Of a stretch of DNA of 64,000 nucleotides, positions 13,902-54,600 are shown piece by piece; within the stretch, counting starts at the first letter, position 1, and each line of letters opens with the position of its first letter. This DNA comes from Ostreococcus lucimarinus. Its lineage: Eukaryota. The DNA lies in assembly GCA_000092065.1 (NCBI GenBank), contig CP000582.1. The stretch is one strand, 5' to 3'. The notes under the pieces were generated by a model. The model searched no databases. It saw nothing but the letters and a program-made list of their open reading frames with translations, and was not told the DNA's origin. The position numbers and the translations under genes were made by a program.

Positions 13902-14231
13902 GCTGCAAGCACGACTGTGCGCAGCGCTCGAGCGTGCAATTATTCCGCGGAAACCTGAACGACACAAGCGATCGTCGAAATTTTCGACTCGGAGACGAAA
14001 GTAGATTTTCCACAGAGAAAAATATAGAGACAAGTGAGCCATTAACATTATACTAGTATAAAATCCGCGAAATATAGCATAATTCCGCGTAATATATGAA
14101 AATCTATATCTACGTGAACCATGATCGCACCCTTTCCTTTCGCAAGAAAACCTTGGTACATTTAGATCATGATATACATCGGCGGCCTTCACACCCACGC
14201 CTTGTGTGAAACATAGGTAATTCTTTTACAC

Positions 14232-35066: not shown

Positions 35067-35519
35067 AAGAAAGCGGTTTGTGCTCGAGTTCGTGACATCG
35101 CGTAGTATTGTCAGGTGTCCCTAATTGAGAGCAAAACATGAGAAGATGCGGTTTTGCGTTGTTTTAACATCCGTACCGATTCGTCCACTACACCAGGAAC
35201 CATGTCGCGCCACGAGACTCCGTTTTTTTGAATTTGCCGACTTTCACTGCGACTGGCGAACGGTAGAGGGACCGCAGAGCGACGAAGGAGCGACGAAGGA
35301 GCGATCGTAGATCGTAGATTGCGTCCTCTGCAAGACCGCAAATGTCTTAAGGAATCGAGCTTGTGTAACGTGTTGCGATGTGAGTCGTCTGCGATTTTGA
35401 ACGGCGGGGTTCGTTTCGTTCCCAGCACGGAAAAATTTATATATCGCCCCTTTAGAGAGTACCTACACACATGACGAGTCATGAACCGTGGATATATACG
35501 TATTTTACACCGTTTAGTT

Positions 35520-36086
35520 CTAAAAGTTTGATTCTACAACATCTACGAGGTACTTACTAATGCTAATTTGCTCGCCTTTGCTTGCCTTGCGTTTGTGTTC
35601 ATCGACCATCTTCTCGTGCCAGCCCCTCTTCCTGCTCAACGCCGTATCACCCGCCGCGCCTCTCATAGGAATCGCAACCAGGTTCGACATACCGAGCACA
35701 CCATCGCCGTCCATTTTGCTATTCTTGGACATGTTTTGAGACATCTCTCTGTGTGTCTTCAAGTTGTGCATGAAACGTTGAAGTTTGTCGAGCGCGTCTG
35801 TGATGTGTGCGGCTTCATCAGGCTCGAACGTAAACTCCGGATCGAGTGCGAGTTGTATCATCTCGGTACACGATTGAACCCAGCGTGACTTTACACTCAC
35901 GTTGTCGAAAGCTGCTCCAAGGCTTCTCCGATGAGTTGGTAGAGAGGCTTCAACATTATCTGGAATCGCTGGAGTCACGTGTCTCCTGGAATCGCTGGAG
36001 TCACGTGTCTCCTGGAGCCCGGACGATACGTGAAGAGCATCACCGAACGGATCGTCGAAGGGATCATCGTCGCACTCGTCTTCCAT
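35520..36086 (-). CDS. Hypothetical acidic 188-aa protein encoded inside the TIR element. No recognisable domain.
   Basis: The ORF exactly fills the space between the two TIRs. Its reading frame passes through a 26-bp tandem duplication (35960..36011), which is read in two different frames (ETRDSSDS | RRHVTPAIP). The ORF is therefore either recently frameshifted or fortuitous. Confidence 0.3.
   Translation of the reverse strand: MEDECDDDPFDDPFGDALHVSSGLQETRDSSDSRRHVTPAIPDNVEASLPTHRRSLGAAFDNVSVKSRWVQSCTEMIQLALDPEFTFEPDEAAHITDALDKLQRFMHNLKTHREMSQNMSKNSKMDGDGVLGMSNLVAIPMRGAAGDTALSRKRGWHEKMVDEHKRKASKGEQISISKYLVDVVESNF
35960..36019. repeat. 26-bp direct tandem duplication (ctggaatcgctggagtcacgtgtctc x2 plus a partial third copy)
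   Basis: Two perfect copies at 35960..35985 and 35986..36011 are followed by ctggagcc. The unit length is not a multiple of three, so the duplication shifts the frame of the enclosing ORF. Confidence 0.8.
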
Positions 36087-36445
36087 CCGACCATCGCCCG
36101 CACGCGCGACGACAACTGGCGCGACAGGCGTGGAAAAGACACGAGGCGAACGTGTTTTTCACCAAGGTAGGAATACTCTATTGTAGATGGCACTAAACGG
36201 TGTAAAATACGTATATATCCACGGTTCATGACTCGTCATGTGTGTAGGTACTCTCTAAAGGGGCGATATAAATTTTTCCCCCCGAACGCGTTTTTTGAAC
36301 GCGCCGGGGTTTAGCGAAACGCGATGGCGCAACCGTCGCGTTCGCGCGCCCGCCAGTGCGCGGTGCGGCCGCGGCCGCCCGCGGGTGCGCGTGAGTAGTT
36401 CGAGGTGATTCCGACGCGTCGCGTCCGCACGTCGTCGCGCGCCGA

Positions 36446-38239
36446 ATGCCTCGCACGTGCGTGTGCACGAACCCGAACTGCGACAAAGATGTCGAGCGAT
36501 TCGCGTTCCAACTCGGCAAGCACTGGAAAGACGACGTGCTCAAATCGATTCTATCGAGTCTCAGACCCGGAGCGGATGCTGATGACGTAGAAAAATACTT
36601 TTTGCGCGCGATGACGAAGCCCGATGGTGTTCGAGTGTCCTCGCAGCACTTCTTCTGGTACCATTTAGCATGGTCTCGAGGAGACCGCCCGAAGCTGGTC
36701 TTCAAAGATGGCGCGCACGTCCGGCCGACGTACATGCTCCATTCGAATCGGCCGACGTACGCGGGCGAACGAATCGTCGATCCGGCTCGTGTAGAATGTT
36801 TATCACCGCGCGAGACGCGTCTGCGCGTGAAGGCGCCGGCACGGGCGCCCCTTTCAGAGATTTCAAATTTGAATGAGGACGACGTGCATGCGACACAAGC
36901 TGGTGTCAGAGTTGGGATTAAACGGCGACGATCTGCTCCTGCGGCAATTTGCTCGCACAATCGCGCGCAAAACATGTCTTTGAACTCGTTTGAACGGGGA
37001 AGGCCGGGGGAAGAGACGTGCCGCGTGCAAGAAGGGACTATCCACAAGTTACGCTGTGATGAGTTGAAGTTGAGCGAGGCGCTGCGGGAAGAGCGTCAGC
37101 ACGCAGACGACGCGCGCGAGGACGTTCGTTTGCTCACGGAAGAACTTGAACGTATTCAAGAAGAAATGCACGACCAGGATCGAAAATCCTCGTTCGTAAC
37201 TATGCGATACTTGCGGGCGACGAGAGCTAGTGATAAGCAAATCAAAGCGCTTACTGGGTGGCCAACTTTGAAAACATTCGATGCTTTGTGGCGTTTCGTC
37301 AACGCGGGCGACCGCAATGCGACGCAAAACTTGTCGATTGTCAAACGAAAATGGAGGGGCGATTCGACGAGCGCGACGGGTTCGCATGGAACGGTCGTTC
37401 CGCGGAAAAAGAGCTTCAAATGGGAAGATGTATTTTTGGCGTGGTGGATGAGAGCGAAGATGGACTTGACCGCGGATCAACTTGCATACTTCGTCGGAAT
37501 ACACAAATCGACGCTTACACGTGCGCTACATCAAATGACATCATTTTTAACGGTTTTTATACGTGCTTACGGTGGCGACCCGATCGATCCCGAATGGATC
37601 CAGATGACAACAGGGGAGGATTGGAAAGAAGCATACGGGCAGAAACCTTATGAGATTATCGACGTGACTGAAGTGCCCATGGAGACTCCAGATGACCCAT
37701 ATATGCAGCGTTTGTTTTACAGTCATTATAAGAAGCGCTACGTGTGCAAATTTCTTGGCGCCTGTCACTCAAATTGTCTTGCCGCTTTCTGTTCAGTTGG
37801 GTTCCCTGGATCCATTTTTGACAATGAAATTTGCTTTGCTGGAAAGGATCATCCGATGCTTAATCATGCGGTACACCGAGCCAGCATCCGCCGGAGGACG
37901 TTCACAGACGAGAACGACGAAAATGTAGTCGTTCCCGAAACAATTGCAGCTGATCGTGGCTTTTGCGAAGGGTTGAATAGACAGTTTGAACGGGATGCGT
38001 TCAGGCTTGTGCACCCTGCGTTTTCAAGAGGCAAGAATGTGGCCTTCTCCAAGGAGGACATTCTCGACACCAGGGCGCAAGCATGTCGCCGAGTGCTAAT
38101 TGAAAATGCTTTCGGTCGCGTCAAGACGATTTGGAAGCGTATGCGCGGTCCAATAGCTATCTCCAAGCTGAAATCGGTGCATCAGGAGTGGCCAATAATA
38201 TTTTTCCTAGCGCTAGATTTACAAGCTTCGCTAAGGTAG
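36446..38239 (+). CDS. PIF/Harbinger-type DDE transposase (DDE_Tnp_4) with a long Cys-rich/coiled-coil N-terminal extension. GC about 60%.
   Basis: A 597-aa ORF, real ATG at 36446. The C-terminal half has an HTH plus the Harbinger catalytic triad context: YEIIDVTEVPMETP (D1), IAADRGFCEGL (D2), VLIENAFGRVKTIWKRM (E, the VENxFGxLK motif). The N-terminus has CVCTNPNCDKD and a charged coiled coil (ELKLSEALREERQHADDAREDVRLLTEELERIQEEM). It is strongly GC-enriched relative to flanking host genes. Confidence 0.75.
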   Translation: MPRTCVCTNPNCDKDVERFAFQLGKHWKDDVLKSILSSLRPGADADDVEKYFLRAMTKPDGVRVSSQHFFWYHLAWSRGDRPKLVFKDGAHVRPTYMLHSNRPTYAGERIVDPARVECLSPRETRLRVKAPARAPLSEISNLNEDDVHATQAGVRVGIKRRRSAPAAICSHNRAQNMSLNSFERGRPGEETCRVQEGTIHKLRCDELKLSEALREERQHADDAREDVRLLTEELERIQEEMHDQDRKSSFVTMRYLRATRASDKQIKALTGWPTLKTFDALWRFVNAGDRNATQNLSIVKRKWRGDSTSATGSHGTVVPRKKSFKWEDVFLAWWMRAKMDLTADQLAYFVGIHKSTLTRALHQMTSFLTVFIRAYGGDPIDPEWIQMTTGEDWKEAYGQKPYEIIDVTEVPMETPDDPYMQRLFYSHYKKRYVCKFLGACHSNCLAAFCSVGFPGSIFDNEICFAGKDHPMLNHAVHRASIRRRTFTDENDENVVVPETIAADRGFCEGLNRQFERDAFRLVHPAFSRGKNVAFSKEDILDTRAQACRRVLIENAFGRVKTIWKRMRGPIAISKLKSVHQEWPIIFFLALDLQASLR

Positions 38240-40336
38240 ATTCCGCGTCTCGCACGCGTCTGTAACCCTGTGTAAAGTACATTTGTGATTGTTCTCTTTT
38301 TCATATACGTCGAAATACTCCCTGAGAAGTGTTGATGGCTTGTTTCGCGACCACATCGCGCTTACATCAGGTGCAACTTCAGGGAGCTCCAAATCACCGT
38401 CACCGCGAGTGTCCACAGTGCATCGTCGCTTTGCGCGCCCAGCTTCGAATCGATTAAAGTCAATGTTGCTAAGAGGATTTTTGCGATTCATCGGATCCCC
38501 TTCGCCACTCGTGCCGAACCACTCACTTTCGAGCGACGTGCATGGATCAGCTGGTCGTTGCAACTTGGCAAAATACCAGAGCGCTGCGATGACATGGATG
38601 CACCCTCCGAAGTCTCCGCCCGCTCCCGCCTTGCACGCGCACGTCCCACGCTCGACACTGACGACATGGTCATGGACATGTTCATTCGTTTCTTCGTCGA
38701 TGCACCCATACTTGCATAACAAGCATACAGCGACGGCATAACGCTCTGCTTTGAGTGATGCCGGAATACCAACTCGGAACCACACGCGGAAGTGAGTTTG
38801 CATCCACGGATGCCCCACGTGCGCAAAACGAATCGGAAGGGGCGTCCGGGCGTGTATTCGTGCGTATCCTTGTCGATACGCTTTGGATCGAACCGGGTCG
38901 CCGTAAACGGACATCCCCGCGAGCCACGTCGTGATGATGTCCTCACCCATAAGCGGTGACGTCTCGCGGAAAAGCTCAACGTCAGTGCTCCACACTTCAG
39001 CATCCATTGGTGCGTCCAGATCGGGATCTAGCTCAGGGAATTGCGTCACCGGAAGATGAAAATGATGAACCAAATATGTATGAAGACTTTTCCCTTCTGG
39101 ATCCTGGACGTCGCCGTCGACGTCGATATCTAGCTCCTCGTACCGACGCTCAAGCTCCATCCTCTGTATGACCTCTGAGATGATGACATCTTTGTCCCGA
39201 ATATCCTGACATCCGCGGCGGCGATCGTTCCTACGCACGTTCAGCCAACGTATTAAATCCGATTTGGAGTTGTCCTCGACTCTCTTTTCCGGTAAAACGG
39301 CGCCTTTGATGAGATACTTGGGGATTCGTCTCGCCCGTGTTTCACCATGTCTAAAAAGGGCAGCCACTGCAACCAATTCAACGGGTTCGTGAGTATCCGC
39401 ATCGCGCAAACCTAAAGCGAATTCTTCGTTTTCTGAGTGATTTGCGTTGAATATGGTTGCGTCATTGAGCCAGCGTCTCTCTTTCGTCCGCATATCGTAC
39501 ACGATTGCTCGCTCAAAGCCCGCCAGGCTTTCCTCAAGTTTGAGAATTTGCGTGTCCTCATCACTCGCGTCGACGACGTCCTTCTTGACGAGGTATTTCA
39601 CAAAAGAGCGGATACTGAGAGTCTCTGCACTCTGTATGCACGCTACAATGGCTTTCAGAGCCGTTTGGGGTCCAAGTCCGGGAACTTTCCCCTCCCTGTA
39701 ATCACACCCGCTCGCCGCCGCCCACAAGCGCATGGCGGCGTCGCCGTGCATGCACATGAGCTCCGCAACTGTGTTCACCTCGTTCGTGTCTACCGGCATC
39801 CTCAGGTTGTTTCTGTTAAAAACGTTGCACTTTAACGTCGAAACGCTCCAAGACACCTTGTGGACGACCTTGGCGCACCCGAGCACCACTGCATCTGTGT
39901 CATCCGTCAACACGAAATCAACGAGACCACTCGACTCCATGTACTTCAACTGGTGATCTGATTCGTTTGGCGCCACGACGTACACGAATCCACGCTTCCG
40001 CACTTCATTCAGTATCCGAGGCAAATAACATCGTTCGAATTTTTCACCTATCGTACCTGCTCGCTTCGCGTGCGTCTCCTTCTTGTGTGCAGTCCTCGCA
40101 CCGTCGAAAACAAGGACTGGGAAGACACCTGCATTCACGAGCTTCGTAGCGCGCGAAATGACCGTTTCTACAGACGAATCCAGTTTATCCTGAACAGAAC
40201 CAGTTTTTCGCATCGCCCACCCCTGGTGTATCCAGATGTTTGCGTCTACCCCCGCTTTCGCGTTGGCGAACTCGCCGCCGATGGACGTGCGGACGACCGC
40301 ATCGTCGAACGCTTTCCACCCTGCGTCGACGCCCAT
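38231..40336 (-). CDS. XPG/FEN1-family structure-specific nuclease (XPG-N, XPG-I, H3TH) fused to a C-terminal SWIM-type zinc finger. GC-rich, convergent with and overlapping the transposase 3' end by 9 bp.
   Basis: Product is MGVDAGWKAF...AGVDANIWIHQ (XPG-N), VFDGARTAHKKETHAKR, VVAPNESDHQLKYMESSGLVDFVLTDDTDAVVLG (XPG-I with acidic catalytic residues), GCDYREGKVPGLGPQTALKAIV (helix-3-turn-helix), ... CLLCKYGCIDEETNEHVHDHVVSVERGTCACKAGAGGDFGGCIHVIAALW (a CxC-x9-CxH SWIM pattern). The ATG at 40336 gives the canonical MGV start of XPG-family proteins. The track start at 40354 is a TTG. Confidence 0.7.
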   Translation of the reverse strand: MGVDAGWKAFDDAVVRTSIGGEFANAKAGVDANIWIHQGWAMRKTGSVQDKLDSSVETVISRATKLVNAGVFPVLVFDGARTAHKKETHAKRAGTIGEKFERCYLPRILNEVRKRGFVYVVAPNESDHQLKYMESSGLVDFVLTDDTDAVVLGCAKVVHKVSWSVSTLKCNVFNRNNLRMPVDTNEVNTVAELMCMHGDAAMRLWAAASGCDYREGKVPGLGPQTALKAIVACIQSAETLSIRSFVKYLVKKDVVDASDEDTQILKLEESLAGFERAIVYDMRTKERRWLNDATIFNANHSENEEFALGLRDADTHEPVELVAVAALFRHGETRARRIPKYLIKGAVLPEKRVEDNSKSDLIRWLNVRRNDRRRGCQDIRDKDVIISEVIQRMELERRYEELDIDVDGDVQDPEGKSLHTYLVHHFHLPVTQFPELDPDLDAPMDAEVWSTDVELFRETSPLMGEDIITTWLAGMSVYGDPVRSKAYRQGYARIHARTPLPIRFAHVGHPWMQTHFRVWFRVGIPASLKAERYAVAVCLLCKYGCIDEETNEHVHDHVVSVERGTCACKAGAGGDFGGCIHVIAALWYFAKLQRPADPCTSLESEWFGTSGEGDPMNRKNPLSNIDFNRFEAGRAKRRCTVDTRGDGDLELPEVAPDVSAMWSRNKPSTLLREYFDVYEKENNHKCTLHRVTDACETRNLP

Positions 40337-40672
40337 ACGCACCAGAATTTGCAAACACGGCTACAACTCGATCAGAAATACATTTTGTCACCTGTTCATG
40401 TGCCTCCGCGATGCCCGACGCGCGTGCGCGCCACGACAGCAGCGTGAAAGTGACGGGGATGCGCGACGGGCCGAGCGAGTTCAAAAAAAGGACGAAAGGG
40501 CACCGGATTCGAGGTTTTCGTCGACAGTGGGTCATGACGAGTCACAAACGTTCGACTTAAATATGTAAAATGATAGGAAAACCTTAATGCAATGGGTCAT
40601 AATAGCTGAATATATATGGTTTCTCGTCGTAATGGACAAAAGTTGCTTTCATAAAAATAAGGATGTAGTTGT

Positions 40673-40789
40673 TACTGAGAGTGGGGTTCGAACCCACGCA
40701 GTCAATGACTACCAGAAATCTCACCAGTTTTTTCGGTGAAGCTTATTCGCACTTGAGTCTGGCCCCTTAGACCACTCGGGCATCCCAGC
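40673..40789 (-). tRNA. tRNA-Leu (anticodon CAA) with a 33-nt intron in the canonical position 37/38
   Basis: Minus-strand read is GCTGGGA-TG-CCC-GAGTGGTCTAAG-GGG-G-CCAGA-CTCAAG-[tgcgaataagcttcaccgaaaaaactggtgagat]-T-TCTGG-TAGTCATTGACTGC (long type-II variable arm) -GTGGG-TTCGAAC-CCCAC-TCTCAGT-A. The acceptor stem pairs with two G-U wobbles. D-loop GAGTGGTCTAAG is typical of Leu/Ser tRNAs. The T-loop is TTCGAAC. There is no encoded CCA. Confidence 0.85.
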
Positions 40790-42646: not shown

Positions 42647-45600
42647 GTGACATATGACATCGTATTACAACGTTTTACCCCCACTTCGCAAGGACCGACC
42701 ACCCCATATCCATGTGCTATAAAAGCTAACTCAAAATGGAAGCTCGTACGTCTGAAACGCTTGGCGCTCGAGCGTTTCCGATGTCCGATGTTAACGCGCC
42801 ACAAACCGGAGAGCGTTCAGAATGGTACGCCCCGAAATGAATCACGAATGAGCAATCTAGACACACGCGCTATGTCGAACCCTTACTTTCAGGTCGGGCG
42901 ATGGGACTGCACGGACGAGCTCGAGGGGTGTCAATTCTCCGCGCCACATACGTCGGTGTCAGTTCCTAATTTCGAAGAGATTCAGACCCTTCACTACACC
43001 TGCGTGTATGAAGTGGCGATCACGTGTACACAGCGGCATGATATGCATAACGATGAGTTCGCGCATGTACTTAGTTCTGTCATCGAGCTCGCAAATCGCG
43101 TTGACCTGACACGACTTAGGCAACATCACTCCATAGATAACTTTGCCACACACGTTCTCACTTTTCGGTTCATTCTGGACCTGTTGAGGCAAACTTATCA
43201 GGAATACATCAAAGGAAGCATAGAAAATAATTCGTTTGAGCATGTCGAATTTACTTTCAACAATTGCATGGATGGTACGCACGGAATGGCAACATGCTTT
43301 AAACCGAATAAAAAGCATAGTCACCTTTGTTACATTTTGGATATTTCGCAGGCAGAAAGAAGTTGCAATGGTCGTACTGATGACACAAAATGCGTGCACG
43401 ACAAAATTACTATGAACGATCGCGTTCTTTCCGCGGCTAAGATCCCAGACAACGCAGTGAATAAACAATTCAGTGCTAGTATACTCAATGATGTGTATGG
43501 TTTCGATTCAAGTCTGTTCCATATTTCTCAGTCGGAAACCCTCTGCATGGACCCACAACAACGACTATTACTTCTTGCAGCAGCAGACTTATACCTGAGT
43601 AACACACGTGTTTGTCAACACGACGACTCCTTCTGCGTGCACGTCGGTGTATCGTGGAATGACTTTGAGGAAATTCGCAGAAAGTATAGTGCAGACTTTT
43701 TCTCCACTTATGATTCGACGGGAACATCAATAAGTGTCGCATCGGGTAGAATTGCGTATTATTTTGATTTCAAAGGGTGTGCTGTGACGATTGATACGGC
43801 TTGTTCATCATCTTTGGTTGCGTTGCATCAATCCATGTACGCAGCTGGCTCGCTCCGTGAATCAAGTGCACTTGTATGTGGCATCAACTTGATTTTGACA
43901 ACCACGATGACACATCGATTTCAGCTTGCTGGAATGATGTCTTCAGAGCATCGATGTATGACATTTGATGCACGCGCGGATGGCTACGTCCGGAGTGAGG
44001 CATGCAACATCGTACTCTTACACTTCAATGGCTTCACAAAAACTCATAGGAATGTACTGCGGCATGACGTTCATATGTCATGCGTCGTCAATCAAGATGG
44101 AACATCAACTGGACTTACGGCACCTAATGGAACAGCTCAGCGGAACCTGATGAATGAGTTACTATCGGACGTTTATAACCCTTCAAAACACGTTGGTGCT
44201 AAAATACATGCCCACGGCACAGGTACGCCTCTTGGGGATCCGATAGAGGTGTTTGCTATCAATTCTGCCCTCTCGTTTTCGTCACTGTGCAGGCTGTATG
44301 TGTCAGAAAAGTCGATGCGAGGGCACACAGAACCTGCTTCAGGTCTATGCAGCACCATACTTGCTTTCGTATCAGGTGCACAGTGCAAGCTACATGGTCA
44401 ACCACATTTACAGCAGTTAAACAATCATATACTAACATCGGTTGATGAAAGTATTTTTCAGCGTTCACTGCATTCCAGTTTTCCCTTAACTTCTATGGCG
44501 AGTGTCACCACAGTAAGCTCCTTCGCGTTCCAAGGGACGAACGCAATGGCTTCACTGACATATATCGACAAATGCAGTATTAGAGTGATTCGCAACACGT
44601 CAGGTCTGAGATCTTTGGTCAAGTTGGAGACTGAATCCCCTGTAAGACTCCCGTACACATTTTCTTGCCTTAGCATCGTCAATGGGAAAATGATACAGCT
44701 AACTTCAATGATTCACGACAAAACATTGAAGCGACTTTTGGATCATCGTGTAGCTGATATGCATCTTATGCCAGCCACAGGCCATCTTGAACTTGAAAGA
44801 GAGCTCACGAAGTGCGCTCTCGTAAGGAATGAACCATATCTTCTGACAAAGATCGCATTTATGCTGCCTCTCAAGCTTGATGAAAGCAATCAACTTATCA
44901 CAGAGATGAACACACATGGTCGCTTACGCGTTGGATGTGGCTCTGGCATATCCAATTACTGGTGTAGTACTGCACGACTTCAAATACCAGTAGGACGTGC
45001 CTGGTGCACGGACCGTACTTTTTATCTGACTAGTAAACTCGTTTCTCGGCGTTTCAAAGGTGCGACCGCAACAATAGCAGGGACGACGCCAATTCTCGAT
45101 TCACAAAATGTCGTGAATCCGTGTATCCAGGATGCGAGTCTACAATGCTCTGCATACGTCTTGAACACGTCAGCTTTCGCATCTGATACAACCTACATGG
45201 ACTGCGTATCGTTACTTAAGCTACCAACAACAATTCAAGACGTCATAGTTGTTAATCAGACAGGAAAAATACTTGTTAGATCGACGCATGTTGACATGTT
45301 GCAGAAGACGCAGCATGTGACTGAAAGTAATAACTCTGTCACAAGTAACTCTTCGAGTAACAATAAAACGCAGACATGGATACATCGTTTACTGTGTAAA
45401 GTATCAACCGTACGGATGAAAGCTGGCTTACGCACTCGCACATGCTTGGAACTCGCGAGATTGTTGTACCACGCGAGACAACAAAGAGTGCTGATATCAA
45501 ATATGCAAAACTTGCGTGAAGTAGGCAGTTTACATGCTCCAGAACTGATGCCCATCATGCGCGAAATGGGTCGTAAGTCAATGCAAGATATTAATTCGGC

Positions 45601-48600
45601 TAGTGCCTCTCTTTGCGCGGTTGCGCTGCTGCAGGCTTGCGGCGCTCGTGCGCGCGTTTCCGGCGCCCACGTGCGTGCAAACGACATCGTCCACGAGGAC
45701 GCTTCGGCCGCGCCCGCAGTCTGTGGATCGTGCGTGCGCGCCACCGTGCAATCTTCCGCGCAGGAACGCAGCGAGCCATTGGTGCTGAGTGTCGCGAGCG
45801 CCCCGCACACCGCGCCAGCCCGAGCGTTGCGATCGATCGCCGCCGGGGCGTCGATCGCCGGGGCGCTGTGCGTTGAGCGGCTGCTTCCGGCGTTCGGTCG
45901 CCGGACGCCCGCCGCGTCGCGCGACGGCGCGGCGACGACCACGGCGTCGCCGGCACCGAAAGTCTCGAGCGTGTTCGTGACTGGCGGTCTGGGCGCGTTG
46001 GGTCAGACTTCGGCGGCGTGGTACGCGCATCGAGGCGTTCGCCACGCCTACTTGACTGGTCGCCGCGGGCGCGGAGAGTCCCTTCTGCTGCGATGGTCGT
46101 CGCGCGGCGGTACCGACGTGAGCGCATTGCACGTGCTTCGCGTCGACGCGTGTGCGACCGACGAGGCGTCGTACGGCGGTGCGCGCGCGCACGCGCGCGT
46201 GCGCGCACACGGCGTGCTGCACGCGGGCGGCGTGCTACGCGACTCTTTGACTGCTCGCCAATCCGCGTCGGCCCATCGATACGTGTGGTCGTCCAAAGTA
46301 GTGTCCGCGCACGCATTGCTCCGCCAGTGCGTCGGCGTCGAGCGCGGCGCGCGTCACATCGCGCTGTTCTCGTCGGTGGCGGCGCTGCTGGGGAGTCCAG
46401 GGCAATGCAACTACAGCGCGGCCAACGCCGCGCTGGACGCGCGAGCCGCACACGAGTGGTGCCGCGGGTACGCGGTGCAATCCGTGCAGTGGGGCGCGTG
46501 GGACGGCGCGGGAATGGCGCTGACAAACGCGTCTGTACTCAGGAACGCGCGCACGACAGGCATCGGCGTGCTCGATCCGCAAGCCGGGCTCGGGGCCGTA
46601 CACGTCGCGCTTCAGGGCGCATCAGTGACGGGTCGCTGGCGGGCAATCCAAGGCGTCCTGGCCGTCGTCCCGTTCCAGTGGTCCGTGCTCGCGCGCGCGC
46701 AGCGCTCGCGCGCGCTGATTGCGGAGTACCGCGCGGAGTCGGCGCGGTCGAGCGCTCCAGTCGCCGTCCATCCGGGCGCCGAGGAAGACGCGGCGCGCGA
46801 TGTGTCAGATGAGAGCGTGCGGCAGATCGTGGCCTCCGCCGTGACGCGCGCGCTCGGCAGAGACGTGTCGGTGGACGCGTCGCTCATGGAAGAGGGCCTA
46901 GACTCGCTCGCGGCGGTCGAGCTCGGAGGGGCGTTACAAAAGGAAACGGGCGTGAACATGCCGGCCACGCTGGCATTTGACTACCCGACGATCACCGCGA
47001 TATCTGGGTACCTGAAGGGTGCGATGCTGGCGCGATCGCGTGCGCGCCAATCGAGCGGCGCGGCGTCCAGCGCCGCTCGCACGCGCGCCGCGAGCGGCGC
47101 GGTCGCGCATTCGCGCGACTCGATGCCAGGTATTGCATCCAACGCGCGCGAAATCTTGGGTCTTGCGCCCGTTGTTATGGCCATCAGACGGAGCGTGCGA
47201 CGACTCGACGCGGATGATCGAGAGCCAAAGCCTGCTCGACATGGCGGCTCGGCGTTGTTTTCATCGTTCGTGAGGTGCGTCATGGCAGAGCGAGCCTCTG
47301 AAGATCGCTTCGACACGCCATCGTTGGGCAGGCAGCCGAGCGCGACAGCGCGCGTGGTCTCCTTGACGAAAGCCAGAGATTTCACTACACAAGCTCTCGA
47401 CAGCATGCCGAAATGCAACGAGATTGAGCTGAGCGTCGTCAGCGCTGTGTCGAGTAAGGCATCAGGCGCGCACGATGCCGTGCGTGTGAACAACATGCGA
47501 CATGCGTGCGGCGAAGTGTGTGATCCACAAAGCTCAAAATCGCACGAGTTCGTCGCTCGGCGTCTTGTGCAGTTTGGGTACTTCATCGAGCGCAGCTTGT
47601 TTGACGGGGAGCAGTTCTCCGTAACGGCGCACGAGGCGCGGTTGATGGACCCGCAGCAGCGCGTGCTCCTGGAGAACGCGCTCGCCGCGACGAGTGCGAC
47701 GCCGCACAGCGCGCCGAAGCCAGCCACAGCCGTGTCCGTCGGCGCTTGGACGTCTCAGTACGCAGACATGTGCCGCGTGTACGAGCCAACGCCGGGGCCG
47801 TACTCTGGCGTTGCTTCCGCCTTGAGCGTGCTGTGCGGTCGCGTATCGTACACGTTTGGTATGCGTGGCCCGTCCGTGTGTGTCGACACCGCGTGCTCCT
47901 CCTCGCTCGTGGCCGCGCATGTTGCGAGCTCTCACTTGCGCGATGGATCGTGCGAGGACGCCCTCGTCGCCGGCGTGAGCGTGAACGTCGGCATCGGCAC
48001 CTTCCTCGTGGCCACCGCCGCGAGCATGCTATCGTTCGATGGTCGGTGCAAAACCTTGGATGCCAGCGCCGACGGTTACGCCAAGGGCGAGTGCTGCGTG
48101 GTCCTGCGCGTGTCGGTGGACGGGGCGAGCGCTGGAGCGCCCAAAGCGCCCGATCTTCCAAACGCCGAGTCTCCCTCTCTCGCTCTTCTCGAACAGACCG
48201 GTGTGAACCAGGATGGACGGTCGAGCTCGCTCACCGCACCAAACGGGCCGTCGCAGCAGGCACTCGTGGCCGATGCGCTTCTCCGCTCGGGGCTGCACGG
48301 CGACGCGCTCGGCAGGCTGGAGATGCACGGCACGGGTACTTCGCTGGGAGATCCGATAGAGGTCGGCGCCGCGCTTGAGGTTCTCGCGCCGCCGACGCGC
48401 GCGGACCGGGCGCCGTCCAGGGGCCCCGCGCTCACGCTTGAGGGCGTGAAGCCACGCGCTGGCCACTGCGAACCAGGGGCTGGCGCGGTTGGGTTGCTGT
48501 TTGCGATGGCAAACTTGACGGAGCGAGCCGTCGCGTCCCTCGTCCACCTGCGCCAGCTCAACCCTCACGTCGAGGCCGCGACGCGCCGAAACGCACCGTC

Positions 48601-51600
48601 GCCGCATGCGCGCGCGCCGGTGCTCGCGCGACAAGGCATGCCGCGACCGGATGACGGCGCGTCTGAGGCTGGAGCAGCGGACGCTGCTCGAGCGCGCGTG
48701 CGGCGATCCGGCGTGAGCGGCTTCGCGTTCCAGGGCACAAACGCGCACGCAATCATGGCCCGGGGACCCGGACAGGCGACTGCGCCCGGGTACACGGGAA
48801 GCACGCACACGGCGGCGCGTGCGTGGGAGCGTCAGCGCCACTGGTGCGCGCCAGAACGGCACTGCCTCATCGAGTCCGTGCGCGCTCTGCATCCTCGCGA
48901 GGGAGACTCGAGCGCGTTGGCGCGGTCGTGCGTGCGCCTGTGTCGGTCCGCGTCGCTCGCTGGCATGCTTGATCACGCCGTCGGGCTCCGGACGCTGCTA
49001 CCAGGCACAGCGCACGTCGAGATATGTCGAGCCATGGCGGGCGCGCTGGCAGACCAGCCGCTCGCCGACATCTCGCTGTCGCACGTATCTTTTGCAGCGC
49101 CCCTCGAGCTTCGAGCGCCGACGACCGACGTGCTGTGCGACGTCACGCCGCAAGGCGTGGCCCGCGTGGGCGTGCGCGTGTCGTCGTCCTCTGCCGCCGC
49201 GCCGTTCCTCGCGGGCGCGCTCAGCCGCAGAAGCGCCTCAAGAATTACTGCGTCTCCGGCGCACCTCTCGCGAGGACCGGCGATGCCCGCGCTGGACGTG
49301 CAGCCTTGTGTTCACGGCGCGAGCTGGCTGCGCTCGTCGCAGCGACGAGGCCCGGGCGCGGAGCACCGCGTGTACGGCGACATACGCGCGCGTCAGATGT
49401 CCACGCTGTCGGCTGCGGCGTATCACTCGCCGCCCGCAGTGCTCGATGCCGCGCTGCACGCGCTCAGCGCGTGCGCGCCGCCGCCGGGTAGCGATGCGAC
49501 AGAAGAGAGCCCGCACGTCCCGGCCACGATCGGCGGCGTCCGCACGCGAGGCGGGCACTCGGACATATACCGCGCCCGGTTCGCGCTCGCGACGGCTCCG
49601 CCTGAGCGCGGGGAGCGGAACGCGTCCACGCGCAGATCTCGTCACCACCTGTGGGACTGGTCGAGTCTTTCGGCGGCGCATCGAGGGTGCGTGGTGCACG
49701 CGCTGGAGTCTCGACGACTCGGTGGCGCCGCGGTCGTGCGCTCGCGAGCACAACAGCGCTCGAGGGCACCGCCGCCGCGTCGCGCGGCCGCGCCGCGTGT
49801 GCTTTATGGAGTCGGGCAACAGCGCGCGTGCGGCGCGGCGGATGGCCAGGGCGCGCGTCGACGCTCAACCCTCAACTCGCAGTGCTTTGTGGACGACGCG
49901 TCGCACCGCCGCGAGCTGATGGAGACCCACGCGTCACCATCGATCGCGCAAGGCAGCACGCGAAGCAGCACGCGCGCCTCTCTTTGCGCGGTTGCGCTGC
50001 TGCAGGCTTGCGGCGCTCGTGCGCGCGTTTCCGGCGCCCACGTGCGTGCAAACGACATCGTCCACGAGGACGCTTCGGCCGCGCCCGCAGTCTGTGGATC
50101 GTGCGTGCGCGCCACCGTGCAGTCTTCCGCGCAGGAACGCAGCGAGCCATTGGTGCTGAGTGTCGCGAGCGCCCCGCACACCGCGCCAGCCCGAGCGTTG
50201 CGATCGATCGCCGCCGGGGCGTCGATCGCCGGGGCGCTGTGCGTTGAGCGTCTGCTTCCGACGTTCGGTCGCCGGACGCCCGCCGCGTCGCGCGACGGCG
50301 CGGCGACGACCACGGCGTCGCCGGCACCGAAAGTCTCGAGCGTGTTCGTGACTGGCGGTCTGGGCGCGTTGGGTCAGACTTCGGCGGCGTGGTACGCGCA
50401 TCGAGGCGTTCGCCACGCCTACTTGACTGGTCGCCGCGGGCGCGGAGAGTCCCTTCTGCTGCGATGGTCGTCGCGCGGCGGTACCGACGTGAGCGCATTG
50501 CACGTGCTTCGCGTCGACGCGTGTGCGACCGACGAGGCGTCGTACGGCGGTGCGCGCGCGCACGCGCGCGTGCGCGCACACGGCGTGCTGCACGCGGGCG
50601 GCGTGCTACGCGACTCTTTGACTGCTCGCCAATCCGCGTCGGCCCATCGATACGTGTGGTCGTCCAAAGTAGTGTCCGCGCACGCATTGCTCCGCCAGTG
50701 CGTCGGCGTCGAGCGCGGCGCGCGTCACATCGCGCTGTTCTCGTCGGTGGCGGCGCTGCTGGGGAGTCCAGGGCAATGCAACTACAGCGCGGCCAACGCC
50801 GCGCTGGACGCGCGAGCCGCACACGAGTGGTGCCGCGGGTACGCGGTGCAATCCGTGCAGTGGGGCGCGTGGGACGGCGCGGGAATGGCGCTGACAAACG
50901 CGTCTGTACTCAGGAACGCGCGCACGACAGGCATCGGCGTGCTCGATCCGCAAGCCGGGCTCGGGGCCGTACACGTCGCGCTTCAGGGCGCATCAGTGAC
51001 GGGTCGCTGGCGGGCAATCCAAGGCGTCCTGGCCGTCGTCCCGTTCCAGTGGTCCGTGCTCGCGCGCGCGCAGCGCTCGCGCGCGCTGATTGCGGAGTAC
51101 CGCGCGGAGTCGGCGCGGTCGAGCGCTCCAGTCGCCGTCCATCCGGGCGCCGAGGAAGACGCGGCGCGCGATGTGTCAGATGAGAGCGTGCGGCAGATCG
51201 TGGCCTCCGCCGTGACGCGCGCGCTCGGCAGAGACGTGTCGGTGGACGCGTCGCTCATGGAAGAGGGCCTAGACTCGCTCGCGGCGGTCGAGCTCGGAGG
51301 GGCGTTACAAAAGGAAACGGGCGTGAACATGCCGGCCACGCTGGCATTTGACTACCCGACGATCACCGCGATATCTGGGTACCTGAAGGGTGCGATGCTG
51401 GCGCGATCGCGTGCGCGCCAATCGAGCGGCGCGGCGTCCAGCGCCGCTCGCACGCGCGCCGCGAGCGGCGCGGTCGCGCATTCGCGACGTACAACCATTA
51501 CTCAGCTCCCTCGTCTACGTCTATCATACGTTCCGCATGAAGTCAGCCGACGAACGACTCTTGGCATTAGCGGTCAATATTCTCACGAGCTTAGACACTT

Positions 51601-54600
51601 TAGCTCTGCGGGACCTTCGACCAGTAACTTTGAGGGAGTCCTCTTTGTTCGCATTCATAACTCCACCAAGCCCTTACCCGTGCATCCATATTTCATTGGC
51701 AACTTTTTGCGTTGTGACGAACTCGAGTTCGGCTTGTTTGGCGCACCGCACAGCGAATGGACTACTCTGGACGCGCGGCAGATTCTCTTGATTGAGAGTG
51801 TACACACTATCCAGCTGAACAACAGTTCAGACGTTTCATTGCGCACTCTAGAGACGACGGCTGTTCTTGTTGGAGCACAAGCGGTAGATTCAACTGACGA
51901 GCATAGCGTTGAGATACAGTACAACGCCTACTCTGGCGTTGCTTCCGCCTTGAGCGTGCTGTGCGGTCGCGTATCGTACACGTTTGGTATGCGTGGCCCG
52001 TCCGTGTGTGTCGACACCGCGTGCTCCTCCTCGCTCGTGGCCGCGCATGTTGCGAGCTCTCACTTGCGCGATGGATCGTGCGAGGACGCCCTCGTCGCCG
52101 GCGTGAGCGTGAACGTCGGCATCGGCACCTTCCTCGTGGCCACCGCCGCGAGCATGCTATCGTTCGATGGTCGGTGCAAAACCTTGGATGCCAGCGCCGA
52201 CGGTTACGCCAAGGGCGAGTGCTGCGTGGTCCTGCGCGTGTCGGTGGACGGGGCGAGCGCTGGAGCGCCCAAAGCGCCCGATCTTCCAAACGCCGAGTCT
52301 CCCTCTCTCGCTCTTCTCGAACAGACCGGTGTGAACCAGGATGGACGGTCGAGCTCGCTCACCGCACCAAACGGGCCGTCGCAGCAGGCACTCGTGGCCG
52401 ATGCGCTTCTCCGCTCGGGGCTGCACGGCGACGCGCTCGGCAGGCTGGAGATGCACGGCACGGGTACTTCGCTGGGAGATCCGATAGAGGTCGGCGCCGC
52501 GCTTGAGGTTCTCGCGCCGCCGACGCGCGCGGACCGGGCGCCGTCCAGGGGCCCCGCGCTCACGCTTGAGGGCGTGAAGCCACGCGCTGGCCACTGCGAA
52601 CCAGGGGCTGGCGCGGTTGGGTTGCTGTTTGCGATGGCAAACTTGACGGAGCGAGCCGTCGCGTCCCTCGTCCACCTGCGCCAGCTCAACCCTCACGTCG
52701 AGGCCGCGACGCGCCGAAACGCACCGTCGCCGCATGCGCGCGCGCCGGTGCTCGCGCGACAAGGCATGCCGCGACCGGATGACGGCGCGTCTGAGGCTGG
52801 AGCAGCGGACGCTGCTCGAGCGCGCGTGCGGCGATCCGGCGTGAGCGGCTTCGCGTTCCAGGGCACAAACGCGCACGCAATCATGGCCCGGGGACCCGGA
52901 CAGGCGACTGCGCCCGGGTACACGGGAAGCACGCACACGGCGGCGCGTGCGTGGGAGCGTCAGCGCCACTGGTGCGCGCCAGAACGGCACTGCCTCATCG
53001 AGTCCGTGCGCGCTCTTCATCCTCGCGAGGGAGACTCGAGCGCGTTGGCGCGGTCGTGCGTGCGCCTGTGTCGGTCCGCGTCGCTCGCTGGCATGCTTGA
53101 TCACGCCATCGGGCTCCGGACGCTACTACCAGGCACAGCGCACGTCGAGATATGTCGAGCCATGGCGGGCGCGCTGGCAGACCAGCCGCTCGCCGACATC
53201 TCGCTGTCGCACGTATCTTTTGCAGCGCCCCTCGAGCTTCGAGCGCCGACGACCGACGTGCTGTGCGACGTCACGCCGCAAGGCGTGGCCCGCGTGGGCG
53301 TGCGCGTGTCGTCGTCCTCTGCCGCCGCGCCGTTCCTCGCGGGCGCGCTCAGCCGCAGAAGCGCCTCAAGAATTACTGCGTCTCCGGCGCACCTCTCGCG
53401 AGGACCGGCGATGCCCGCGCTGGACGTGCAGCCTTGTGTTCACGGCGCCATCAGACGGAGCGTGCGACGACTCGACGCGGATGATCGAGAGCCAAAGCCT
53501 GCTCGACATGGCGGCTCGGCGTTGTTTTCATCGTTCGTGAGGTGCGTCATGGCAGAGCGAGCCTCTGAAGATCGCTTCGACACGCCATCGTTGGGCAGGC
53601 AGCCGAGCGCGACAGCGCGCGTGGTCTCCTTGACGAAAGCCAGAGATTTCACTACACAAGCTCTCGACAGCATGCCGAAATGCAACGAGATTGAGCTGAG
53701 CGTCGTCAGCGCTGTGTCGAGTAAGGCATCAGGCGCGCACGATGCTGTGCGTGTGAACAACATGCGACATGCGTGCGGCGAAGTGTGTGATCCACAAAGC
53801 TCAAAATCGCACGAGTTCGTCGCTCGGCATCTTGTGCAGTTTGGGTACTTCATCGAGCGCAGCTTGTTTGACGGGGAGCAGTTCTCCGTAACGGCGCACG
53901 AGGCGCGGTTGATGGACCCGCAGCAGCGCGTGCTCCTGGAGAACGCGCTCGCCGCGACGAGCGCGACGCCGCACAGCGCGCCGAAGCCAGCCACAGCCGT
54001 GTCCGTCGGCGCTTGGACGTCTCAGTACGCAGACATGTGCCGCGTGTACGAGCCAACGCCGGGGCCGTACTCTGGCGTTGCTTCCGCCTTGAGCGTGCTG
54101 TGCGGTCGCGTATCGTACACGTTTGGTATGCGTGGCCCGTCCGTGTGTGTCGACACCGCGTGCTCCTCCTCGCTCGTGGCCGCGCATGTTGCGAGCTCTC
54201 ACTTGCGCGATGGATCGTGCGAGGACGCCCTCGTCGCCGGCGTGAGCGTGAACGTCGGCATCGGCACCTTCCTCGTGGCCACCGCCGCGAGCATGCTATC
54301 GTTCGATGGTCGGTGCAAAACCTTGGATGCCAGCGCCGACGGTTACGCCAAGGGCGAGTGCTGCGTGGTCCTGCGCGTGTCGGTGGACGGGGCGAGCGCT
54401 GGAGCGCCCAAAGCGCCCGATCTTCCAAACGCCGAGTCTCCCTCTCTCGCTCTTCTCGAACAGACCGGTGTGAACCAGGATGGACGGTCGAGCTCGCTCA
54501 CCGCACCAAACGGGCCGTCGCAGCAGGCACTCGTGGCCGATGCGCTTCTCCGCTCGGGGCTGCACGGCGACGCGCTCGGCAGGCTGGAGATGCACGGCAC

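Follow-up and report, generated by a model that had tools for sequence, protein, structure and literature searches.

The PHIS superfamily groups PIF/Harbinger elements, which duplicate TWA at the target and carry a Myb/SANT protein as the product of their second open reading frame (ORF2), with ISL2EU, Spy, Pangu and Nuwa (PMC4482050; PMC9179366). ISL2EU elements, found in animals only, duplicate AT and combine a THAP-bearing transposase with an ORF2 that encodes a YqaJ exonuclease (PMC4482050; PMC9179366). The function of ORF2 in PHIS elements has been stated to be unknown, as has the cleavage of the second strand in PIF/Harbinger-type elements, and Ostreococcus lucimarinus was among the 836 genomes screened in the PHIS survey, being named only in that list in both text and supplements (PMC4482050). 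Here, we analysed a stretch of 64,000 nucleotides of O. lucimarinus (contig CP000582.1, assembly GCA_000092065.1; hereafter the window), in which a gene for an XPG-family nuclease with a SWIM-like zinc finger (XPG-SWIM) faces the gene of a PIF/Harbinger-type (DDE_Tnp_4) transposase. We consider it probable that this gene is the second gene of a cut-and-paste transposon of the PHIS superfamily, about 4.4 kb long and proper to Ostreococcus and related picoalgae, and that it provides the element with an accessory 5'-strand nuclease. Feature coordinates are collected in Table 1.

The XPG-SWIM ORF runs from an MGVDAGW start to a stop codon at 38231-38233, with 701 codons and no internal stop, and an exact-sequence look-up showed its product to be identical to RefSeq XP_001416426.1 (UniProt A4RSV6) of O. 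lucimarinus CCE9901, a single intron-less protein of 701 aa publicly named 'Exodeoxyribonuclease I'. The limits (38231-40336) and MGV start given by a first-pass annotation of the window were therefore exact, and the concern that an unrecognised intron or stop might divide the ORF into two genes does not apply, because the public record models one intron-less protein. An in-frame TTG lies six codons 5' of the start; since XPG_N domains start at the initiator Met, this upstream codon is irrelevant. The XPG half and the SWIM-like half are thus both real and stand in one chain. Members of the metagenomic protein cluster of XPG-SWIM are labelled '5'-3' exonuclease' or 'exonuclease-1', which is misleading for a transposon ORF2.

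In the N-terminal half the complete set of XPG modules (N, I and H3TH) was recovered, as had been proposed. Pfam recognised XPG_N with E 6e-12 (46.3 bits against a gathering score of 22) and XPG_I with E 4e-15 (56.4 bits against 24.9), and the K+/DNA-binding H3TH (helix-3-turn-helix) region could be aligned to EXO1, with GLGPQTALKAI opposite GIGLAKACKVL. When PDB sequences were searched with phmmer, the top match was human EXO1 (E 9e-12, covering aa 28-230), followed by Chaetomium GEN1 (1.5e-9), yeast Rad2 (3.5e-7) and then the FEN1s. The acidic XPG-I cluster noted at first pass was likewise borne out, all seven carboxylates being matched in the EXO1 alignment, where D31, D78, E125, D127, D146, D148 and D212 correspond to EXO1 D30, D78, E150, D152, D171, D173 and D225; furthermore, the gateway residues K85 and R92 coincide with EXO1 K85 and R92. 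The metal-binding and gateway roles of these EXO1 residues are known from structures 3QE9, 3QEA and 3QEB. Active-site residues are also retained in the relatives P0039, P0031 and P0038 (P numbers denote related proteins, and L numbers the loci that carry related sequences). As judged from its sequence, the protein is a catalytically intact 5' nuclease of the XPG/Rad2 family whose nearest relative is EXO1, and a pseudo-nuclease like Mkt1, raised at first pass as the alternative to an active enzyme, is excluded by the conserved catalytic residues together with a ratio of nonsynonymous to synonymous divergence (dN/dS, or omega) of about 0.2. With 47 residues between D78 and E125, where EXO1 has 72, the helical arch falls some 25 residues short of full length, and the same spacing of 47 is found in P0002 and P0039, which represent two other Ostreococcus-type lineages.

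For the C-terminal half, a SWIM finger of the pattern CxC-x9-CxH had been proposed. The Cys/His signature and its conservation stood, whereas the spacing is x10 (C566-A-C568-KAGAGGDFGG-C579-I-H581) and the score falls below the Pfam threshold. Indeed, SWIM (PF04434) was the sole Pfam family found for this half among 24,736 models scanned, aligned over profile positions 1-36 of 38, with 14.4-17.1 bits under a gathering threshold of 19.6 bits, and it was matched at E<=1 in only three of 12 relatives. When aa 240-701, without the XPG part, served as query in a HMMER search of 1.84 billion representative proteins, 33 relatives were returned, and even the distant ones (25-31% identity) carry N-terminal XPG_N and XPG_I domains too; homologues with the same fusion therefore exist. 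In a 12-sequence alignment with a mean column identity of 22%, the three Cys and the His of the finger are invariant, and so are the PASM motif and an Arg, a Thr and a Trp that follow the finger. A full-length AlphaFold model from a 3-sequence alignment was unusable (predicted local distance difference test score, 36) and was replaced by a model of the C-terminal half from 15 sequences, in which the predicted fold resembles a solved SWIM domain. Comparison of this model with the PDB gave no Foldseek match below E 0.1, and a search of PDB sequences with a SWIM-block profile retrieved no SWIM protein, the only hit being a chance match to proepiregulin. We conclude that the C-terminal finger is a divergent SWIM-type finger lying outside formal Pfam membership, an assignment made because of the motif, its conservation and the modelled fold, and not because of a significant Pfam score.

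The neighbouring gene was confirmed as a transposase gene by Pfam (DDE_Tnp_4, E 4.5e-18), with a weak HTH_Tnp_4 match and a coiled coil in addition, and DDE_Tnp_4 was also recognised in the partner genes of relatives (9e-21 at L002, 4e-32 at L023, and also at L031 and L032). Residues D503 and E553 are invariant, and the first D, which belongs to an IIDVTE motif, is shared by all three sequences that extend over it. At the N terminus (36446-36700), transposases only 26% identical have in common the series CxC-x4-C ... LRP ... V-x-x-S-x-x-H ... WS; the N-terminal 130 aa matched no Pfam family, THAP included, and the conserved CxC-x4-C ... S-x-x-H motif may represent a divergent THAP-like or other zinc DNA-binding module. 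In IMG this transposase is labelled 'uncharacterized coiled-coil protein SlyX', which is misleading. The two genes are convergent and belong to the same element, with 3' ends that overlap by 9 bp (38231-38239); in the P0039 family the overlap is 29 bp (L023 3082-3110). Consequently, any transcripts of the pair would be mutually antisense where they overlap.

The pair lies within a transposon, in a region that forms an island of 53% GC in surroundings of about 45%, and 18 further loci were found in a metagenome scan. The element is about 4.4 kb long, with terminal inverted repeats (TIRs) that read TA/GACCCATTGCAYTAAGG, the slash marking the junction with the flank. TIRs are present at both ends in the complete copies L007, L002, L023 and L025. 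In L007 (4.4 kb) and L002, GACCCATT(G/C)CNCTAAGG stands at both ends in inverted orientation, each time flanked by TA, and the P0039 family has homologous TA/GCCTATTTCCCTAAG termini, related to the TIR of the window family, inside TIRs of about 190 bp. The right terminus (40598 in the window) joins about 12 unrelated flanks, nearly always as ...ATA/GACCCATTGCAYTAAGG, and a 4.35-kb copy of 99.5% identity (L001, L003) is located beside MCM, SMP and PsbP genes, not beside the STN7-like kinase gene. Flanks of the complete copies (...AAAATA/element/TATACC in L007 and ...TTATA/element/TATTAA in L002) repeat only the dinucleotide TA, and a 3-bp TWA target-site duplication was rejected on this ground.

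Abutting ends were also observed. At L013 (about 61-95) a left end is followed by TATA and a right end, forming a head-to-tail or circle-like junction, and at L002 (about 88-240) two right ends stand head-to-head with TTATA between them; such arrangements could reflect insertion beside existing ends or joined-end intermediates. A near-palindromic subterminal sequence, TGACTCGTCA, occurs within CATGACTCGTCATG about 55 nt inside the right end (window, about 40533-40549; L002, about 215-235), as well as in the 90-nt arms of an adjacent repeat described below (window 36224-36240), and could be a candidate protein-binding site.

The association of the two genes extends well beyond the window copy. 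The convergent, overlapping pair recurs in the window family (L001-L010), and the P0002/L002 family, at 67% identity, has the same two-gene layout. P0039, a protein of 736 aa with XPG_N and XPG_I whose C-terminal half is only about 25% identical, is encoded, in at least 10 contigs, tail-to-tail with the gene of a DDE_Tnp_4 protein of 614 aa, and the genes of P0032 and P0031 (803 aa) likewise face DDE_Tnp_4/HTH_Tnp_4 genes; the pairing is ancient. Between the window and a family of 88% identity (synonymous divergence, dS, about 0.32 and unsaturated), omega was 0.20 for XPG-SWIM and about 0.3 for the transposase, and it was 0.19-0.26 among paralogous copies of one assembly (dS 0.04-0.13). Constraint is strongest over the SWIM block (omega 0.10, against L002). 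These values indicate that selection preserves both genes and acts on the nuclease no less strongly than on the transposase. The transposon-linked role that had been suggested for the nuclease from its position next to a transposase is thus upheld by a pair that lies within TIRs, is multi-copy at many loci, and is kept together down to about 25% identity.

To our knowledge, DDE enzymes all nick the 3' ends of their element. We propose that the transposase would nick the 3' ends and perform strand transfer, while the SWIM module would tether the nuclease at the synaptic complex, via either the transposase or subterminal DNA, and would so fill the adaptor/DNA-binding place taken by the Myb/SANT protein in classical Harbinger. 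The XPG active site would process the 5' (non-transferred) strand, where a cut at a single-strand/double-strand junction may free the element; alternatively, it may trim the 5' flaps of the donor flanks after strand transfer. In this it would be analogous to the XPG module of AcademX and to the YqaJ 5'-3' exonuclease encoded by ORF2 of ISL2EU, for both of which such a task has been suggested. A more far-reaching version, which we offer tentatively and regard as possible but doubtful, is that DDE_Tnp_4 and XPG-SWIM form an obligate two-enzyme transposase, the former cutting and joining 3' ends and the latter, docked by means of its SWIM module, cutting 5' ends, as a eukaryotic counterpart of TnsA/TnsB. 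If this were true, eukaryotic DDE transposons would have solved the second-strand problem independently by different means, with XPG here and in AcademX and with YqaJ in ISL2EU.

Several points weigh against the proposal of a transposon-borne accessory nuclease that acts on the 5' strand. The step at which the nuclease acts is purely inferential, and the partner of its C-terminal module is putative, whether DNA, the transposase or something else. The TA that flanks both ends could be a target duplication or instead part of the TIR, and the window copy has no left TIR, so that it may be immobile or mobilised only as part of a composite. Moreover, the D-to-E spacing in deeper relatives is 69-74 residues, and the short arch therefore gives no family-wide argument about the substrate. 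The same conservation and linkage data would also fit a transposon-encoded nuclease that promotes repair, performing EXO1-like 5'-3' resection at the donor break or at the gapped insertion site; homologous recombination with a sister copy would then restore the donor element and render transposition effectively replicative. That EXO1 is the nearest solved relative, ahead of GEN1, Rad2 and FEN1, speaks for such a role, as does the ISL2EU partner, which is of the YqaJ/lambda-exonuclease type and also a 5'-3' recombination exonuclease (PMC4482050), and the authors of AcademH/AcademX too speculate about coupling to host repair (PMC7165386). We nevertheless hold it to be rather unlikely: the host should already own EXO1, so that there is less reason for the element to carry one of its own unless that one is targeted, and the strongly conserved SWIM module suggests tethering to a specific partner over general resection. 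Both end processing and repair resection agree with the finding that DDE transposons have captured 5'-polarity nucleases repeatedly.

It is very improbable that the ORF is a host gene, that is, an EXO1 paralogue or domesticated repair factor that merely adjoins a transposase. The RefSeq/UniProt annotation would suit a host gene, as would the missing left TIR and the intact state of both ORFs in the window, and the insertion is old, since L008 shares the junction of the tRNA gene and the element (87% identity), the tRNA-flanked locus thus being occupied there as well. However, the gene is in every case faced tail-to-tail by a DDE_Tnp_4 gene, down to relatives of 25% identity; complete copies have it between TIRs; and it is multi-copy with about 12 different flanks, not single-copy as a host gene would be. 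Furthermore, purifying selection acts on the paralogous copies as they diverge, a pattern of active transposon lineages, and the orthologous copy at L008 is decaying, with the substitution D78V, homology lost after residue 656 (and with it the C-terminal tail) and the transposase gone, which argues against domestication. The idea of a domesticated repair factor, entertained at first pass, is made unlikely by this mobility and decay, and the host-gene explanation is largely refuted. The remaining alternative concerns the finger itself, whose Cys/His pattern might be a family-specific zinc knuckle or no metal site, leaving an XPG nuclease with a novel C-terminal domain. The sub-threshold Pfam score, the nine of 12 relatives unmatched even at E<=1, and the lack of a SWIM protein or a structural match in the PDB comparisons described above would all agree with this; given the invariant ligands and the modelled fold, we judge it distinctly unlikely, and retain the reading of a SWIM-like module joined to a transposon-encoded nuclease.

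The window copy itself is incomplete: it lacks about 116 nt, among them the left TIR, and its homology to complete copies ends at 36282. There, an 851-bp unit of a separate repeat family adjoins the truncated left end and replaces it; its inverted arms are 97% complementary and enclose ORF188, whose protein cluster has 59 members, O. tauri proteins among them. Relatives of this unit include a 222-bp version without most of the spacer (L003 2817-3038) and solo arms (L007 7032-7111 and L008 20421-20519). We considered the 86-90-nt inverted repeats as the left TIR of the transposon and rejected them, given the different canonical left end of L007 and L002 and the independent occurrence of the arms elsewhere. 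In L003, the spacer beside the transposon is oriented oppositely to that of the window, which could be due to inversion between the arms or to the way the assembly was made, and L001 has a tandem duplication of the first 35 nt of the arm. At L025 (1-145), a P0039-family element is joined to left subterminal sequence of the window family (...GTTCAAAAAACACGTTTGGTGAAG/TAGCC...; compare L007, about 14010-14045), and this breakpoint falls within about 10 nt of the interruption point in the window, a coincidence suggesting that a site about 116 nt from the left terminus is prone to repeated breakage or insertion.

On the other side, a tRNA gene found by Rfam lies 75 nt outside the right terminus and marks the orthologous locus in L008; ARAGORN in bacterial mode reported no tRNA in the window. 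We rejected the idea that the element targets tRNA genes, since among the 11 other loci only L008, the orthologous one, shows a tRNA where the element ends. The window also contains an uninterrupted ORF of 4,658 codons (42647-56623, plus strand) that resembles a modular type I polyketide synthase, with large internal blocks repeated near-identically two to three times and a GC content of 66-71% over 46-56 kb, against about 45% in the DNA around it.

Table 1. Positions of the transposon, its two genes and their parts, and of adjacent features in the 64,000-nucleotide window.
Feature	Position	Strand	Basis and remarks
Transposon copy body	36283..40598	-	Homology to complete copies L007 and L004, from right terminus 40598 to 36282
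Right terminal inverted repeat, GACCCATTGCATTAAGG	40582..40598	-	Occurs once only in the window
DDE_Tnp_4 (PIF/Harbinger-type) transposase, 597 aa	36446..38239	+	Pfam; record XP_001416176.1 / A4RSV5
XPG-SWIM ORF (transposon ORF2), 701 aa	38231..40336	-	Pfam, EXO1 alignment; record XP_001416426.1
XPG_N domain, aa 1-93	40058..40336	-	Pfam and EXO1 alignment; holds D31 and D78, with K85 and R92 on the gateway helix
XPG_I domain, aa 116-212	39701..39991	-	Pfam and EXO1 alignment; holds E125, D127, D146, D148 and D212
H3TH region, aa ~213-250	39587..39700	-	G220-L-G222-PQTA opposite EXO1 GIGLAKA
Middle region, aa ~301-495	38852..39436	-	Mostly helical, family-specific; motifs MVxGxxL, RDPDGxSLHxYL, FPxLDP and GYxRI; no Pfam family
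Four-stranded sheet, SWIM-like finger and its helix, aa ~500-595	38552..38839	-	Best-modelled part; includes the PASL/PASM motif
Putative zinc ligands C566, C568, C579 and H581	38594..38641	-	CxC-x10-CxH; invariant in relatives
851-bp unit (separate repeat family)	35429..36279	.	Inverted repeats 35429-35518 and 36192-36279 (86-90 nt) around ORF188
ORF188, 188 aa	35520-36086	-	XP_001416425.1; inside the 851-bp unit
tRNA gene, 117 nt (context only)	40673..40789	-	Rfam, 42.4 bits, E 1e-6; probable intron; anticodon-loop region CAA

With regard to its meaning, XPG-SWIM would be a third kind of PHIS ORF2, after Myb/SANT and YqaJ, and a partner type undescribed for the superfamily in searchable papers; it would also mean that DDE transposons have captured XPG-family nucleases twice, apparently independently, the earlier-described case being AcademX, which we compared by its description. 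This repeated recruitment of 5'-polarity nucleases points to a real mechanistic need. Ostreococcus species have tiny genomes and are transformable, and the question is therefore experimentally approachable, with a small element, both ORFs intact and intron-less, and a transformable host. Moreover, the 'Exodeoxyribonuclease I' of the public record and many proteins called '5'-3' exonuclease' in metagenomes should be regarded as products of transposon genes, a reannotation that affects repair-gene inventories and the interpretation of the outlier chromosomes of Mamiellales, which are rich in transposable elements. The first-pass remark that no characterised XPG-SWIM fusion was known agrees with the searchable literature, where no paper combining XPG, a SWIM zinc finger and a transposase was found (Repbase Reports and most subscription journals lying outside the search) and a search for YqaJ together with SWIM gave nothing relevant; XPG nucleases in transposons, in turn, do have a precedent in AcademX, whose transposase is fused to one (PMC7165386).

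Among cellular proteins, the nuclease half resembles EXO1, GEN1, FEN1 and XPG in XPG_N, XPG_I, H3TH, the seven carboxylates and K85/R92. It differs from EXO1 in being a mobile-element gene with an arch about 25 residues shorter in the Ostreococcus lineages, and in its C-terminal half, which is unrelated to the mismatch-repair interaction region of EXO1 and holds a SWIM-like domain instead. Compared with SWIM-domain proteins (ZSWIM8, MuDR/FAR1-type transposases and SWS1), the finger here is sub-threshold and is fused to an XPG-family nuclease. With Tn7 TnsA/TnsB only a proposed logic would be shared, by analogy, in which a DDE enzyme acts on 3' ends and a nuclease of another fold on 5' ends; TnsA has a restriction-endonuclease fold and belongs to a bacterial element, and there is no sequence or structural relationship.

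Among transposons, AcademX is likewise a DDE element with a captured XPG nuclease, a Cys-rich finger and short target duplications (PMC7165386), although the Academ transposase, XPG and a Cys8 finger form one polypeptide there (PMC7165386), whereas in Ostreococcus the nuclease is encoded by a separate convergent gene next to that of a DDE_Tnp_4 transposase and has a CxCxnCxH finger. PIF/Harbinger elements share DDE_Tnp_4 with HTH_Tnp_4, two ORFs, short TIRs and AT-rich targets (PMC4482050), but here ORF2 encodes a predicted enzyme with a zinc finger, with no Myb/SANT match, and the flanks are TA/TA and not TWA. The closest resemblance is to ISL2EU, also a two-gene DDE_Tnp_4-type element (about 4.8 kb, against about 4.4 kb here) with a 5'-3' nuclease as ORF2 product, a dinucleotide duplication (AT, against the TA suggested here by the flanks) and a Cys-rich transposase N terminus (PMC4482050). 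Nevertheless, the nuclease described here is predicted to be of the XPG/FEN (PIN-like) type with a SWIM finger and not of the YqaJ/lambda-exonuclease type, Pfam giving no YqaJ match; the flanks read A-TA/TA-T versus A/AT/T, the TIRs start with GACCC or GCCTA versus GG, and the hosts are green picoalgae, whereas ISL2EU is reported from animals only. In brief, with a DDE_Tnp_4 transposase and a 5' nuclease the element would work like ISL2EU, yet it departs from the features that define ISL2EU and from the ORF2 and target-site duplication of Harbinger.

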